In this document: one piece after another, positions 46,175-50,150 of the stretch | How the letters are laid out: the number at the start of each line of letters is the position of its first letter | How positions within the stretch are numbered: the first letter of the stretch is position 1 | Program-made: the position numbers and the translations under genes | NCBI GenBank assembly: GCA_903929765.1 | Contig: CAIYVX010000082.1 | Coordinates: 16,974-80,973 of the forward strand | DNA: 64,000 nt | Origin: an uncultured Planctomycetia bacterium | GTDB taxonomy: Bacteria; Planctomycetota; Phycisphaerae; FEN-1346; JAACEH01 | Direction of reading: 5' to 3' | The notes under the pieces: model-generated | What the model was told of the DNA's origin: nothing | Databases searched by the model: none | Seen by the model: only the letters and a program-made list of their open reading frames with translations

Positions 46175-46232
46175 GGTTTCCCCGGACGCGACTCGCACGT
46201 CGTCTCTTTACCCCTCTCCCCATAAGGGAGGA

Positions 46233-46271
46233 CGGGTGGCATGGCGGCGTCGTTTGCCGCCATGTTTCGCC
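46233..46271. repeat. Palindromic element family D, copy 1
   Basis: GACGGGTGGCATGGCGGCGTCGTTTGCCGCCATGTTTCGCC has the stem CATGGCGGC/GCCGCCATG. Confidence 0.65.
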
Positions 46272-46295
46272 AGTGCCCGTTCTTCGGGTGCCGCC

Positions 46296-46352
46296 GTTTC
46301 TTCACCCCTCTCCCTCGGGAGAGGGTGGCCCGAAGGGCCGGGTGAGGGGTTA
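46296..46352 (+). repeat. Palindromic element family B, copy 2
   Basis: GTTTCTTCACCCCTCTCCCTCGGGAGAGGGTGGCCCGAAGGGCCGGGTGAGGGGTTAG is near-identical to the copy inside valS (56208-56272). Confidence 0.7.
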
Positions 46353-46489
46353 GCTCACCACCTCAAAAACTTCACCAGAACGCCATCATACGCGAGGACA
46401 TGCCCTGCCCGCGCCCTAAGCCCGACCAAAGTATTCCGAATCGCCCCATTTTTCAAGTAAAAACGCTGTGCGTACAGCCTTTGTTGTTC

Positions 46490-46514
46490 GTAGGGACAGG
46501 GCTCTGCCCTGTCC
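46490..46514 (+). repeat. GTAG-type hairpin element family G, copy 1
   Basis: GTAGGGACAGGGCTCTGCCCTGTCC is identical to 63476-63500 and begins with the GTAG tetranucleotide typical of classical REPs. Confidence 0.65.
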
Positions 46515-46543
46515 AGCCGTTTCTTTTGCCGTTGCCGCTTCAC

Positions 46544-46592
46544 CGTGGCACGGGCTTCCCGCCCGTGAGTCGCAGGGGCATCTTGCCCCTGT
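46544..46592 (+). repeat. REP family A, copy 3
   Basis: CGTGGCACGGGCTTCCCGCCCGTGAGTCGCAGGGGCATCTTGCCCCTGTG is present, and its flanking TGCCGTTGCCGCTTCAC... context also matches copy 8. Confidence 0.7.
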
Positions 46593-46670
46593 GCCGTTGT
46601 TCTTGCCGTTGCCGCGTGTAGGGGCAACCCGTGGGTCGCCCGTTGCTGTTGTTTGTTGCTTCTCTCTAGG

Positions 46671-46985
46671 CCCCCGCGCCATCGCCCTCCACTCCGCTCT
46701 CCCCCAGCCGCGAAGCGGCGAAAGTTTTTAGCCGGGCGGCGTCAGCCCCCGGTCCCCGCCGCAAACACATTCTTCTTCTTTTTCTTCTTATTTCTCTTCT
46801 CAGCCGCAGCGCGGCGTCTGATAATAACCACGCGGCGCAAGCCCGTGGTTCCCAACGCGCCGACCCGGCTTTTTTCTTCTTCTTTTTCTTTTCCCAGCCC
46901 CCTCCCCCCGCGCCATCCCCCTCCCCTCCGCTCACCCCCAGCCGCGAAGCGGCGAAAGTTATTAGCCGGGTGGCATAAGCCAGCC
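46671..46985 (+). repeat. Two ~77-nt direct repeats separated by polypyrimidine tracts
   Basis: 46671-46747 is CCCCCGCGCCATCGCCCTCCACTCCGCTCTCCCCCAGCCGCGAAGCGGCGAAAGTTTTTAGCCGGGCGGC. 46903-46985 is the same sequence with 8 substitutions. Between them lie TTCTTCTTCTTTTTCTT tracts and a GC hairpin, with no credible CDS. Confidence 0.6.
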
Positions 46986-47167
46986 ACACCCTGTCCGCGC
47001 AGACATTCACCATCCGCTTTGGCTTGGTTATTAACACATGACAATGTTCATTTTGAGGAGGGCAGGTCGAAGTAAAGGCGGAGCCAGGGTTCAAGGTCTT
47101 CGAGCGCCACGGCCTTGCCTGTAGAGATGAGGAAGGACTTCATGTTCTCGGTGAATCCGTCGCCGTC

Positions 47168-47920
47168 TTAGGAAGCGAGATTCATCTCAATGCCGAATAA
47201 GTTTTTGCCCCGCTCAAACCCGACAGCAAAATCATGCAACTCCCCGACTTCTTCGTATCGGTGAAATCGAAATCGTTCTCGGTACTGTCTGAATGGCGAT
47301 TGACTCATGTAACGCTCGAAAAGATGCTCTTCCTCATCACCCTGCCCAATGATATAGAGACCTGTTTGGAATCGTTTGGGGATTTTTAGCAACCGCAGGA
47401 GCCCGCTTTTCACTTTGGTGCTATGCTCGACTTCGAATGCGTAACGAGGGTAAAGGCCCTCATCGTCCTCGGACAGCCACATTACATCAACGTCTCGCAT
47501 CCTTGAAAGTGGCAAGCCGCTTATGCTGGCCGAGTCATTACGAACTGTGGCAAAAGAATGAATTGGGATTGCACCCATCGAGCGAATGGTCCGGTCAGTC
47601 GCATTGGTGTAGGTTTCATAGCCACATAATCGTCCGATATGAAGAAGCAACCCTTGCTGTTCCCCGTGTGGATCATTTGCGGCTCCATCGACCACAGGAG
47701 GAAGCTGGCCAAACTCAACGAGGCGATATGCCGCCCTTCCCGACGACGAACGAAATGGCTCAAATATCCGGTATTGCCGCACGACGCGACGAACAGTTGC
47801 CTCCCATGTGGCGGTCCGCGGTCGTTGCGGGCTATTCGCCAAGCACTCCGTAAGAGTTTCAAGCGTCGCCTCACCCCCGAGCTGGCGCAAAGCGTCGGCG
47901 ACAATATCTTTCCAAGTCAT
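47168..47920 (-). CDS. HARE-HTH/Mrr_N-type winged-helix protein with a nuclease-like C-terminal domain (candidate Mrr-like type IV restriction protein)
   Basis: The N-terminus MTWKDIVADALRQLGGEATLETLTECLANSPQRPRTATWEATVRRVV matches the Mrr_N/HARE-HTH pattern as recalled. The C-terminus has D...EVEHSTK-type acidic/lysine residues, a possible PD-(D/E)xK variant. The gene lies in a ~50% GC islet. Confidence 0.5.
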   Translation of the reverse strand: MTWKDIVADALRQLGGEATLETLTECLANSPQRPRTATWEATVRRVVRQYRIFEPFRSSSGRAAYRLVEFGQLPPVVDGAANDPHGEQQGLLLHIGRLCGYETYTNATDRTIRSMGAIPIHSFATVRNDSASISGLPLSRMRDVDVMWLSEDDEGLYPRYAFEVEHSTKVKSGLLRLLKIPKRFQTGLYIIGQGDEEEHLFERYMSQSPFRQYRERFRFHRYEEVGELHDFAVGFERGKNLFGIEMNLAS

Positions 47921-47922
47921 AT

Positions 47923-48180
47923 TTATGCCCTGCTAGTTTTGGCGCCCGGTTTCAATTTGGTCACAAACCTTTTACCGGCACGGCCTCTTGAAACTGGCTT
48001 TGCGGAAACAACATTGGTCACCAACGTTGGCCCGACAACGGACATACGGGGGCCTTTGCAACAAAAATCAATTATCGACTCTGGTGGGAGGCACTCTACC
48101 CAATCACGAGCATCAGCCTCATCGTCGCACTCAACAACCATCTTAAAAGGAACAGAAAGGTTCACAAGGAATTCCGGCAT
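47923..48180 (-). CDS. Small hypothetical ORF upstream of the HARE-HTH gene
   Basis: The ORF is 85 aa from the internal ATG. It has low-GC codon usage like its neighbour and no recognisable family. It may be non-coding. Confidence 0.2.
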   Translation of the reverse strand: MPEFLVNLSVPFKMVVECDDEADARDWVECLPPESIIDFCCKGPRMSVVGPTLVTNVVSAKPVSRGRAGKRFVTKLKPGAKTSRA

Positions 48181-48395
48181 TGTATCCTCCTGGAGGGACG
48201 AACTATTATGCACCTCAAAGCTTGCTTGATGCAATAGGCAAATGCCAAACCCGCAAGATTTTTCTCCACCCTCAGACAAATGGGCTGGGAAAGAGGTGAT
48301 AATTGAGTGGCCTGAGCCACAACTCTTTCCACCACACCATTGTTTTTTCTCCTTCATTCGGCGACAATATCCCCATTCTCTCGCGGAGGTCTCTT

Positions 48396-48764
48396 ATGTC
48401 CTACGAACTTCTTGTCACCATGGATTTCGGCGCCGCCCATTCCCTGCGGCAATATAAGGGCAAGTGCGAGCGGCTGCACGGCCACAACTGGCACATCGAC
48501 GTTTGCCTCGCCGCCGACGTCCTCAACCCCGACGGCATGGTCATGGACTTCGTCGAGGCCAAGGCCCTCATCCGCGAAATCCTCTCAAGTTACGATCACT
48601 ATCATCTGAACGAGGTGCCGCCCTTCGACCAGATCAACCCCACCAGCGAGAACCTGGCCCGTGTTCTGTCCGAGCGGCTCCAGCCCGGCCTGCCGCCGGG
48701 CGTCCGCGTCGTCCGCGTCACCGCCTGGGAAAGCGATAATTGCGGCGCGACGTTTATTGTGTAA
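48396..48764 (+). CDS. queD: 6-carboxytetrahydropterin / 6-pyruvoyl-tetrahydropterin synthase family (QueD/PTPS)
   Basis: MSYELLVTMDFGAAHSLRQYKGKCERLHGHNWHIDV has the Cys-x5-His-Gly-His zinc/catalytic motif of the PTPS fold. The product is 122 aa. Confidence 0.85.
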   Translation: MSYELLVTMDFGAAHSLRQYKGKCERLHGHNWHIDVCLAADVLNPDGMVMDFVEAKALIREILSSYDHYHLNEVPPFDQINPTSENLARVLSERLQPGLPPGVRVVRVTAWESDNCGATFIV

Positions 48765-48785
48765 GATGAACGACAAAAGAAGCAA

Positions 48786-48839
48786 CACCCTCACCCTACC
48801 CTCTCCCCTCAAGGGAGAGGGGTGAAGAAGAAAAAGAAG
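48786..48839 (-). repeat. Palindromic element family B, copy 3
   Basis: CACCCTCACCCTACCCTCTCCCCTCAAGGGAGAGGGGTGAAGAAGAAAAAGAAG is the reverse complement of copy 1. It supplies the GTG and lysine codons of the next gene's annotated start. Confidence 0.7.
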
Positions 48840-50150
48840 AGGCAGGCCGTGACCGAACGAAAAATCCGCATCCAACTCGCCCTCGATTTCGCCGACCTGA
48901 GCCGCGCCCTGGCCGTGGCCCGCGCCGCCGTGCCCGAGGGCATCGACATCGTCGAAGCCGGCACGCCGCTCATCAAGAGCGAGGGTCTTAACGCCGTCCG
49001 CGAGTTGCGCCGCCTCTTTCCCGACCGGCCGATCCTGGCCGACCTCAAGACCGCCGACGCGGGCCGCATCGAAATGGAATGCGCCGCCAAGGCCGGGGCC
49101 ACGATGGCCATCTGCCTCGGCGCCGTCAGCGAATCGACCGTCCAGGAATCCATCGAAGCCGGCCGCAATTACGGCATCGAGGTCGGCGTCGACATGCTCG
49201 GCGTCGCCGATTACGTCGCCCTGGCCAAAAAATGCGAAGCCTGGGGCGCCGCCTTCCTCAACGTCCACCTCCCCATCGACGACCAGATGCGCGGCCTCCA
49301 ATCATTCGACCGCCTCCGCCAGATCGCCGAAGCCGTCTCGATTCCCGTCGCCGCCGCCGGGGGACTTAATTCCGAAAACGTCGTCGACGCCATCGCCGCC
49401 GGCGCTGCCATCGTCATCATCGGCGGCGCGATCACCAAGGCCGCCGACGTGGCCCAGGCCACGAGGGACATTCGCCGCGCGGTGGACACGCGGGCCAAAG
49501 TCGCCACCGAACTTTTCCGCCGCGCCGGCGAGACCGACATCCGCGAAGTCCTCGGCCGCGTCTCGGCCGCCAATTTAAGCGACGGGGCACACCGCCTGCC
49601 CTCGCTCGACGGACTCCGCCCGCTCTGGCCGGGCATCCGCTTTTGCGGCCCGGCCCTGACCGTCCGCACCGTCCCCGGCGATTGGTCGAAGCCCGTCCTG
49701 GCCATCGACCAGGCTGAGCCTGGCGACGTTCTCGTCATCGACGCCGGCGGCCGCCCGCCCGCCGTCTGGGGCGAACTGGCCACACAGAGCGCCATCGTCA
49801 ACAAGCTCTCCGGCGCCGTCATCGACGGGGCCGTCCGCGACACCATGGACATCCGCCGCCTCGAATTCCCGATCTTCTCCCGCTGCGTCTCGGCCAACGC
49901 CGGCGAACCCAAGGGCCTCGGCGAAATCGGCCAGCCGATTTTCCTTTCCGGCCAGCGAATCATGACCGGCGACTGGATTCTCGCCGACGACGACGGCGTC
50001 GTGGTTCTGCCCAAGGCCCGGGCGGTGGAAATGGCCAACCGCGCCCAGGACGTTCTGGAAAAAGAAAACCGCCTTCGCGACGAAATCACCAGCGGCCGCA
50101 GCTCGCTCGGCAAAGTCGCCGAACTTTTGCGCTGGGAGAAAAAATCTTAA
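48822..50150 (+). CDS. Fusion protein: 3-hexulose-6-phosphate synthase (HPS/KGPDC-OMPDC fold) N-terminal domain plus RraA/MenG-like (HMG/CHA-aldolase family) C-terminal domain
   Basis: Residues ~15-215 (IQLALDF...DIVEAGTPLIKSEGLNAVRELRRLFPDRPILADLKTADAG...IIGGAITKAAD) align with B. subtilis HxlA as recalled. Residues ~250-420 (GPALTVRTVPGDW...GDVLVIDAGG...WGELATQSAIVNKLSGAVIDGAVRD) match the RraA-like fold. The true start may be downstream of the repeat-derived GTG. Confidence 0.8.
   Translation: MKKKKKRQAVTERKIRIQLALDFADLSRALAVARAAVPEGIDIVEAGTPLIKSEGLNAVRELRRLFPDRPILADLKTADAGRIEMECAAKAGATMAICLGAVSESTVQESIEAGRNYGIEVGVDMLGVADYVALAKKCEAWGAAFLNVHLPIDDQMRGLQSFDRLRQIAEAVSIPVAAAGGLNSENVVDAIAAGAAIVIIGGAITKAADVAQATRDIRRAVDTRAKVATELFRRAGETDIREVLGRVSAANLSDGAHRLPSLDGLRPLWPGIRFCGPALTVRTVPGDWSKPVLAIDQAEPGDVLVIDAGGRPPAVWGELATQSAIVNKLSGAVIDGAVRDTMDIRRLEFPIFSRCVSANAGEPKGLGEIGQPIFLSGQRIMTGDWILADDDGVVVLPKARAVEMANRAQDVLEKENRLRDEITSGRSSLGKVAELLRWEKKS

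Follow-up and report, generated by a model that had tools for sequence, protein, structure and literature searches.

Without its own methylase, a type II restriction endonuclease is expected to kill its host, and solitary enzymes of this type are rare and mostly unexplained. How a host could tolerate such a gene is the question raised by a low-GC islet in DNA of an uncultured Planctomycetia bacterium (assembly GCA_903929765.1, contig CAIYVX010000082.1, positions 16,974 to 80,973), a stretch of 64,000 nucleotides (nt) that is referred to here, at its full length, as the window. The islet encodes a 250-amino-acid (aa) restriction endonuclease homologue that is preceded by an 85-aa open reading frame (ORF). 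In an earlier inspection of the DNA, made without database searches (the sequence-only reading), this gene was taken for a possible solitary restriction or defence gene of the Mrr type. In our judgement, the balance tips slightly towards the islet being a functional restriction cassette that was acquired horizontally and does without a methyltransferase (MT). Its main parts are:

47040-48395, no strand: the low-GC islet as a whole, foreign DNA by composition, between a repeat and small RNA gap and the start of queD
47168-47920, minus strand: restriction endonuclease homologue, 250 aa plus stop, intact (PF27126, AlphaFold2 model, retained residues)
47711-47920, minus strand: N-terminal winged-helix DNA-binding domain, about aa 1-70, with the conserved helix TWxAT(I/V)RRVVRQY
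47186-47674, minus strand: C-terminal PD-(D/E)XK nuclease domain of the NmeDI_C type, with putative catalytic residues D145, E163, E165 and K171
47923-48180, minus strand: small partner ORF, 85 aa plus stop (homologues; called as a gene in a second assembly)

The islet and its endonuclease gene

The GC content of 47040-48395 is 51.3%, compared to a mean of 61.9% (standard deviation 2.5%) for windows of the same size across the 64 kb. The islet is thus about 4.2 standard deviations under the mean and represents the lowest stretch of its size, and the drop over about 1.4 kb described in the sequence-only reading held up in this windowed calculation. In the composition profile, approximately 47.0-48.45 kb is at 49-56% GC while both sides are at 60-72%. 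GC at third codon positions (GC3) is 52.6% for the 250-aa ORF and 47.7% for the 85-aa ORF, as compared to 81-85% for hom, apgM, queD and the OMPdecase/RraA gene. Moreover, other cassettes with related genes were found in unrelated genomic contexts, and their GC was under that of their flanks in 6/6 hosts checked. Because both GC and GC3 are low, and because related cassettes are also low in GC and sit in unrelated contexts, the islet is foreign DNA that was most likely acquired horizontally, as had been suspected. The identical gene pair was also found beside queD in an independent metagenome assembly.

The 250-aa protein, from which the sequence-only reading quoted peptide strings, is encoded by the ORF at 47168-47920 on the minus strand. 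PF27126 (NmeDI_C), a restriction endonuclease catalytic domain, is present on exactly this protein (P0001; precomputed annotation with PF27126.1 at E<=1e-5). A large protein database contained 332 homologues of 236-282 aa from Verrucomicrobiota, WOR-3, Aerophobetes, Chloroflexota and other groups; all are annotated as hypothetical, and PF27126 was found on all 120 among the matches listed. The C-terminal half, which had been regarded as a possible uncharacterised effector domain, is therefore the catalytic domain known from R.NmeDI (PMC2095814). Local searches of the 250-aa protein against NCBIfam, PDB sequences and a Pfam copy lacking PF27126 gave nothing significant. PADLOC, which had been proposed as a check, did return a REase_II match, a weak one at aa 142-180 (E 0.023); the profile has 351 positions, the same length as R.NmeDI.

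The AlphaFold2 (AF2) model of the nuclease, with a predicted local distance difference test score (pLDDT) of 88.9, contains the alpha-beta-beta-beta-alpha-beta core of the PD-(D/E)XK fold with acidic residues on beta2 and beta3, so the search for a restriction-endonuclease-like fold by structure prediction gave a positive answer. The N-terminal domain has the H1-S1-H2-H3-S2-W-S3 winged-helix fold, and its nearest folds are forkhead and H1. Hence, the combination of a winged helix with a divergent PD-(D/E)XK domain, as proposed in the sequence-only reading, stands at the level of the fold, whereas the Mrr_N/HARE-HTH label is not supported, having no Pfam match at E<=1. Domain content gave no support to membership among the Mrr-like type IV enzymes, as neither Mrr_N (PF14338) nor Mrr_cat (PF04471) was matched and an hmmscan of Pfam-A at E<=1 returned sub-threshold HEAT matches only; that the C-terminal domain does not obviously match Mrr_cat had been remarked before. 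HARE-HTH (PF05066) membership was likewise not supported (no match at E<=1, Pfam hmmscan).

Analysis of conserved residues showed that all 34 columns that are invariant in a 37-sequence alignment are retained in the window protein. D145, E163 and E165 (true protein numbering) were found in 89/89 sequences, with or without an MT, and H85, Q89, E102, D109, T168 and K/R171 in nearly all of the 89; H85, Q89, E102 and D109 are thus further conserved positions of the nuclease domain. The window protein matches the consensus at 75/82 conserved sites, and the other 7 differences are conservative (of the I/L/V/M, K/R and Y/H kinds). Judged from its sequence, the 250-aa gene belongs, as an intact copy, to a family of winged-helix/NmeDI_C endonucleases, and the nuclease represents an uncharacterised new member of a known domain family.

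The N-terminal 80 aa matched only 48 proteins among 1.84 billion representatives. Beyond the nuclease family itself, the same winged helix was found at the C-terminus of a PF01555 DNA methylase (P0164, 374 aa), with P0181 as another PF01555 fusion, at the N-terminus of a DndB-like protein (P0141, 474 aa) and at the C-terminus of a sigma-70 r2/r3 protein (P0156, 478 aa; weak score with the Pfam eukaryotic Forkhead model, E 1.5e-7).

Methyltransferases and the small upstream gene

No MT homologue was found within the 64 kb by tblastn with two cognate MTs, and a motif scan of the same 64 kb revealed no N6/N4 or C5 MT motifs; the gene is therefore solitary in the window, as had been supposed. The linked cognate MT that defines a type II restriction-modification (R-M) system is absent here and present in relatives. 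The 430 bp upstream of the nuclease were also considered as a possible MT remnant. This was ruled out, as tblastn, BLASTP of the 144-aa ORF against MTs and blastn/tblastx of 47921-48460 against 88 homologous loci found no MT similarity.

These 88 loci (designated by L-numbers) were surveyed for neighbouring MTs. In L001, from a Verrucomicrobiales metagenome-assembled genome (MAG), and in L005-7, the nuclease homologue lies 14 nt 3' of a 449-474-aa PF01555 MT, in a standard M-R operon. A PF01555-type MT match was found beside the nuclease in 49/88 loci, and 4 further loci carry a convergent Dam-family gene downstream of the nuclease, although these genes look frameshifted or truncated. The nearest characterised relatives of the MTs are CcrM (E 1e-49 to 6pbd) and the Dam family, and the MTs of this family are therefore N6-adenine enzymes. 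As far as gene order and homology indicate, family members often serve as R genes in type II R-M pairs whose partner is an adenine MT. In all, 19 non-redundant loci reach 1.5 kb or more on both sides; 9 of these carried a full-length MT, 5 a fragment only and 5 none. With a full-length MT in 9/19 informative loci, survival without an MT looks like a property of the family. The MT-less loci that were scanned with Pfam have ordinary neighbours, such as amidase, NTP transferase and AIR synthase (L043, L014).

The stop codon of the 85-aa ORF is 2 nt ahead of the nuclease ATG. This ORF, which the sequence-only reading had listed as possible, is real; it is called as a gene in the second assembly, and homologues are found directly upstream of related nuclease genes elsewhere. 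An extended 144-aa reading was rejected, as both the homologues and the gene caller back the 85-aa start at 48180. The protein has a conserved alpha/beta core of about 60 aa (M..F.V.F....I.VECDDE.DA.E[FY]V) and a disordered basic tail, and its model has the order beta-beta-alpha-alpha-beta-beta. The family is rare (14 clusters); a search with the 85-aa sequence by itself returned only the query, and the relatives came from a profile search. NCBIfam contained no match for either the small ORF or the nuclease, PHROGs none except for a weak match (E 0.0039) of the L019 small ORF to a family of unknown function, and a phage genome collection no matches.

Two other identities for the small ORF were considered and rejected. 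It is not a free form of the C-terminal extension of about 100 aa of long MTs, as jackhmmer over the ORFs of the loci matched small ORFs only. It is also not a controller (C) protein, given that it has no HTH_3 or other Pfam match and a beta-beta-alpha-alpha-beta-beta model. A divergent Xre-type helix-turn-helix gene is located just upstream of the pair of small ORF and nuclease in L028 (1575-1796, minus strand) and in L132-135 (e.g., L132:3134-3391, minus strand), where controller proteins are typically encoded. No gene of this kind is found in the window.

In the small-ORF loci examined, the MT is always truncated or absent and never intact:

17 contigs (L019, L122-126, L140): PF01555 MT cut after about aa 297 of 455, before S-adenosylmethionine (AdoMet) motif I, with a 277-aa product
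L010, L023, L032 and L136: PF01555 MT cut after about aa 233 (L010), 140 (L023) or 104 (L032, L136)
L137 and L138: Dam-family MT cut at ...ERAARMIFLN, before the DPPY motif; short remnants with the same junction in L028 and L132
Window, L003, L127 and L130: small ORF without any MT

At least 5 truncation junctions precede the small ORF, across two MT families. On this comparative evidence, the 85-aa ORF appears as a conserved, selected partner specific to MT-less cassettes, and the window copy falls, by the same comparison, into a sub-set of cassettes marked by the small ORF. In this sub-set the MT is cut short or gone in every case, and yet no catalytic or conserved residue of the nuclease has been lost. 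The consistent co-occurrence of a rare small protein with truncated MTs of two families and with nucleases of two families seems to be new. When L019, which has a truncated MT, was compared with L028, which has no intact MT and only a short Dam-family remnant upstream, the nuclease showed a nonsynonymous divergence (dN) of 0.09 and a synonymous divergence (dS) of 1.57 (dN/dS about 0.06), and the small ORF a dN of 0.39 and a dS of 2.7. Although dS is saturated, these values point to purifying selection on both genes.

A further element of the cassette lies on the other side of the nuclease:

47051-47167, minus strand: 39-codon C-terminal stub of a PDDEXK_11 (PF20472) gene, a remnant and not a gene (jackhmmer E 4e-19)

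The stub starts right behind the nuclease stop codon, and the jackhmmer match is to the 118-125-aa PDDEXK_11 gene found 3' of the nuclease in L019/L122. This gene is intact (118-125 aa) in L019 and L122-126, and L028 has an 80-aa stub. The order small ORF, nuclease, PDDEXK_11 is common to the window, L019, L028 and L122. The islet is therefore what is left of a larger cassette with the order MT, small ORF, nuclease, PDDEXK_11.

The nuclease itself can be exchanged. L127 and L137 carry a DpnI-family enzyme (PF06044 and PF17726) after the small ORF, in place of the NmeDI_C nuclease:

L127:5001-6351 and L137:238-1426, against L122:4151-6318: slot with a DpnI-type enzyme against the same slot with an NmeDI_C nuclease; the small ORF is the common flank, in L127 together with the PDDEXK_11 3' stub

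Between L127 and L122, the small ORFs are 83% identical in nucleotides and the PDDEXK_11 stub 91-93%, around the swapped nuclease. Such nuclease exchange inside constant flanks seems to be new. A related arrangement is that of the pneumococcal DpnI/DpnII alternative restriction cassettes, reportedly described by Lacks and colleagues in 1986. As in that case, DpnI-type and, here, NmeDI_C-type nucleases alternate in one slot with the same flanks in the related loci, whose MT partners are of the Dam family and of the DpnA/CcrM type. The loci described here differ in that they come from other organisms, involve other nuclease families and contain truncated methylases. In L137, the DpnI-type gene is located behind a Dam-family MT that is truncated before its catalytic motif, which fits the state that a methyl-GATC-dependent enzyme would require.

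In a more distant nuclease clade (42-46% identity), 11 loci (L051, L053, L064, L066, L069, L075, L077, L080, L083, L085 and L087) have in common a conserved ORF, about 100-125 aa long, that lies immediately 3' of the nuclease gene (e.g., L080:5008-5382). It has no Pfam match, and no MT was detected in 11/11 of these loci. This association may be simple synteny among close genomes.

A proposed functional cassette and its alternatives

In the reading that we favour, the islet would be a two-gene operon that encodes the 85-aa protein and then the 250-aa endonuclease, followed by the dead stub of a third gene (PDDEXK_11). The winged helix would read the DNA target; since the same winged helix is also fused to a methylase, it probably confers sequence recognition. 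The nuclease domain, with D145, E163, E165 and K171, would cut, probably in dimeric form and possibly next to the site instead of within it, in analogy to R.NmeDI and the type IIS cleavage modules. The residues retained suggest that the protein could still be a functional, sequence-specific defence nuclease. The host would be spared either by an unlinked adenine MT of the same specificity encoded elsewhere in the genome, which we judge the likeliest of the single routes, or by the co-translated small protein.

The characterised enzyme nearest to this proposal is R.NmeDI of Neisseria meningitidis, a type II enzyme of 351 aa that recognises RCCGGY, cuts at 12/7 on both sides of its site and has a C5-cytosine methylase and a Vsr nuclease as partners (PMC2095814). 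Both proteins have the C-terminal PD-(D/E)XK domain (PF27126) and a modular layout with a separate N-terminal region. By contrast, their N-terminal parts are unrelated, the window protein having 250 aa and a forkhead-like winged helix, and the relatives of the window protein pair with N6-adenine methylases, while the window itself is without a methylase. Compared to the type IIS cleavage modules (FokI-like; R.BspD6I small subunit/N.BspD6I), sequence identity is 12%, the recognition domain of the window protein is a single small winged helix, and there is no sign of heterodimeric or nicking behaviour.

Solitary restriction endonucleases are an already known category. The survey by Ershova et al. 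(2012, PMC3488263) points out, in its abstract and Discussion, that such an endonuclease can be covered by an orphan enzyme of the Dam or CcrM-like kind. The cases treated there resemble the islet in being type II R-gene homologues without a linked full-length MT, and the same candidate explanations apply, namely a distant or orphan MT of the Dam/CcrM type, an inactive gene or other protection. What differs here is that the lack of an MT is seen repeatedly throughout a whole sub-family and goes hand in hand with a conserved small partner ORF, an association that has no counterpart in those parts of the survey.

Several observations weigh against a functional cassette. Neither GATC nor GANTC is avoided in the window, where both are frequent (378 observed and 396 expected for GATC; 244 and 245 for GANTC), so that an active enzyme of either specificity would need protection by full methylation, and a protecting MT was not seen within the 64 kb. 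The dN/dS value is derived from a dS that is saturated, and part of the signal may date from a time when the MT was still intact. Moreover, two of the lineages that still have the small ORF carry a split nuclease, namely L130/131 (147 and 116 aa; in L131 147 and 100 aa) and L132-135 (103 and 113 aa), which means that decay after loss of the MT does happen. The GC of the islet is not ameliorated, and the intact ORF could thus simply reflect recent arrival. Finally, the winged-helix/NmeDI_C family has no member with a known enzymatic activity, expression or recognition site.

These observations lead to the rival that survives best, a possible though somewhat unlikely one, in which the islet is an inert relic, i.e., a decaying R-M cassette with a nuclease that is no longer expressed or active and an ORF that is not yet mutated. 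The genes around the pair have already been destroyed, with the MT gone and PDDEXK_11 down to 39 codons, the nuclease is split in the related MT-less loci L130-135, and the unameliorated GC implies a recent arrival. Inactive look-alikes of restriction endonucleases and the PaeR7I case are also found in the literature, as given in the abstract and Discussion of the survey cited above (PMC3488263). On the other hand, the window protein retains 34/34 invariant columns and 75/82 conserved residues with only conservative differences, and the small ORF is still tightly coupled to the nuclease start. Erosion ends exactly at the borders of the pair of small ORF and nuclease in the window, L003 and L028, and the comparison of L019 with L028 suggests purifying selection on both genes.

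A second alternative, which overlaps with the favoured reading and which we regard as unlikely, is that the small protein is an immunity factor that inhibits the nuclease in the manner of an antitoxin and replaces the MT. An R-M system would thereby become a two-protein module of nuclease and inhibitor that is able to spread without a methylase. Without exception, the small ORF immediately precedes the nuclease gene and is coupled to it, and it never occurs with an intact MT, the at least 5 truncation junctions involving two MT families and the remaining loci having no MT. It also appears to be under purifying selection and combines an acidic conserved core with antitoxin-like size and gene order. 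However, family and fold searches revealed no likeness in sequence or structure to known inhibitors, antitoxins or DNA mimics, and the net charge of the protein is just mildly acidic. The small ORF also precedes the methyl-dependent DpnI-type enzyme, which should need no inhibitor, the nuclease has been split nonetheless in two lineages that keep the small ORF, and the interaction is a putative one, seen as gene order, coupling and co-occurrence. Only tentatively, therefore, can the 85-aa protein be proposed as a new protein-based factor of self-immunity or control, with NmeDI_C/DpnI-type cassettes that overwrite or outlive their MTs and spread as methylase-free defence or addiction modules.

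That the gene encodes a solitary type IV, Mrr-like, modification-dependent enzyme, which would need no MT, is improbable. The window protein resembles the Mrr enzymes (Mrr_N and Mrr_cat) in its logic of a winged helix with a PD-(D/E)XK domain and in its solitary occurrence, about half of the family loci are without an intact MT, and a methyl-dependent enzyme of the DpnI type can take the same slot of the cassette. It differs in that no hidden Markov model match to the Mrr domains, nor one to HARE-HTH, was found in Pfam and in that its family is frequently linked to an MT. Many members are in tight operons with full-length adenine MTs, beside which a methyl-dependent enzyme of that specificity could not be tolerated. 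In addition, the protein has its catalytic domain in common with R.NmeDI, which is a type II enzyme of the conventional kind and is blocked by its cognate methylase (PMC2095814). The type IV reading proposed from the sequence alone is not supported, about half of the informative homologues being in an operon with an adenine MT.

MutH derives from a Sau3AI-like enzyme, and solitary restriction endonuclease homologues can be co-opted. In spite of this precedent and of a family that is often MT-less yet conserved, domestication of the window gene for a host function, such as strand-specific repair or DNA-binding regulation, is highly improbable given its patchy distribution, its foreign GC, the mobile cassette, the lack of a conserved host neighbourhood and the lack of synteny carriers among the closest planctomycete MAGs found (Hom <=52% identity).

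The islet represents a concrete and testable case of a restriction endonuclease without a methylase. Should an unlinked Dam/CcrM-type methylase protect the host, restriction genes would be parasitising housekeeping methylation; should the small protein control the nuclease, self-protection would be independent of methylation, which would add considerably to the interest of the case. Either way, this compact enzyme family is a candidate source of a new restriction specificity. In annotation, the gene should be described as a restriction endonuclease homologue of the NmeDI_C family and not of the Mrr type.

Flanking genes and repeats

The islet lies between a repeat-dense gap and queD, as the sequence-only reading had placed it:

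46200-47000: repeat-rich gap, the flank of the islet opposite queD
48181-48395, no strand: low-GC leader/intergenic region, common to the divergent queD; carries the upstream copy of a 14-nt repeat
48396-48764, plus strand: queD (PTPS), the other flank of the islet

Housekeeping genes are found on both sides, with aspartokinase, cofactor-independent phosphoglycerate mutase and homoserine dehydrogenase on the minus strand on one side and queD, followed by an OMPdecase/HUMPS-RraA fusion, on the plus strand on the other. The latter gene (48822-50150, plus strand) encodes a 442-aa fusion of an OMPdecase/HUMPS-family domain and an RraA-like aldolase domain. A scan of the islet for promoters and terminators gave counts at chance level. 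When contigs were scanned with Hom for the islet in sister genomes, the best match had 52% identity (MAGs of Pirellulales, Thermoguttaceae and Planctomycetaceae). These MAGs keep the hom-apgM(-lysC) order, of which the third gene is that of aspartokinase, and have no queD nearby, synteny having broken down on that side.

A 77-nt direct repeat with 91% identity (46671-46747 and 46905-46981) lies in the repeat hotspot beside the islet. The first copy matches the Rfam family Acido-Lenti-1 RNA (RF01687) at 46706-46752 on the minus strand, with 41.8 bits against a gathering score of 37, and the second copy, at 46940-46969 on the same strand, reaches 27.8 bits. Both are upstream of hom and on its strand.

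A 14-nt exact direct repeat, TCGGCGACAATATC, is present at 47895-47908 and 48358-48371, 463 bp apart, so that its copies bracket the 85-aa ORF and the leader; the chance expectation is about 0.01 by a rough estimate. The copy at 47895-47908 corresponds to codons 5-9 of the nuclease, and the other is 25 nt ahead of the queD start, in surroundings (TGGGGGATATTGTCGCCGAA) that are similar to the 5' end of the nuclease gene (TGGAAAGATATTGTCGCCGAC). This repeat may mark a recombination joint or be left over from an earlier copy of the nuclease. Short G+C-rich repeats of the 'CCCCTCTCCC...GGGAGAGGG' type were found in intergenic positions on both sides of the islet (46198-46330 and 48770-48825), and these look like a dispersed repeat family of the host.

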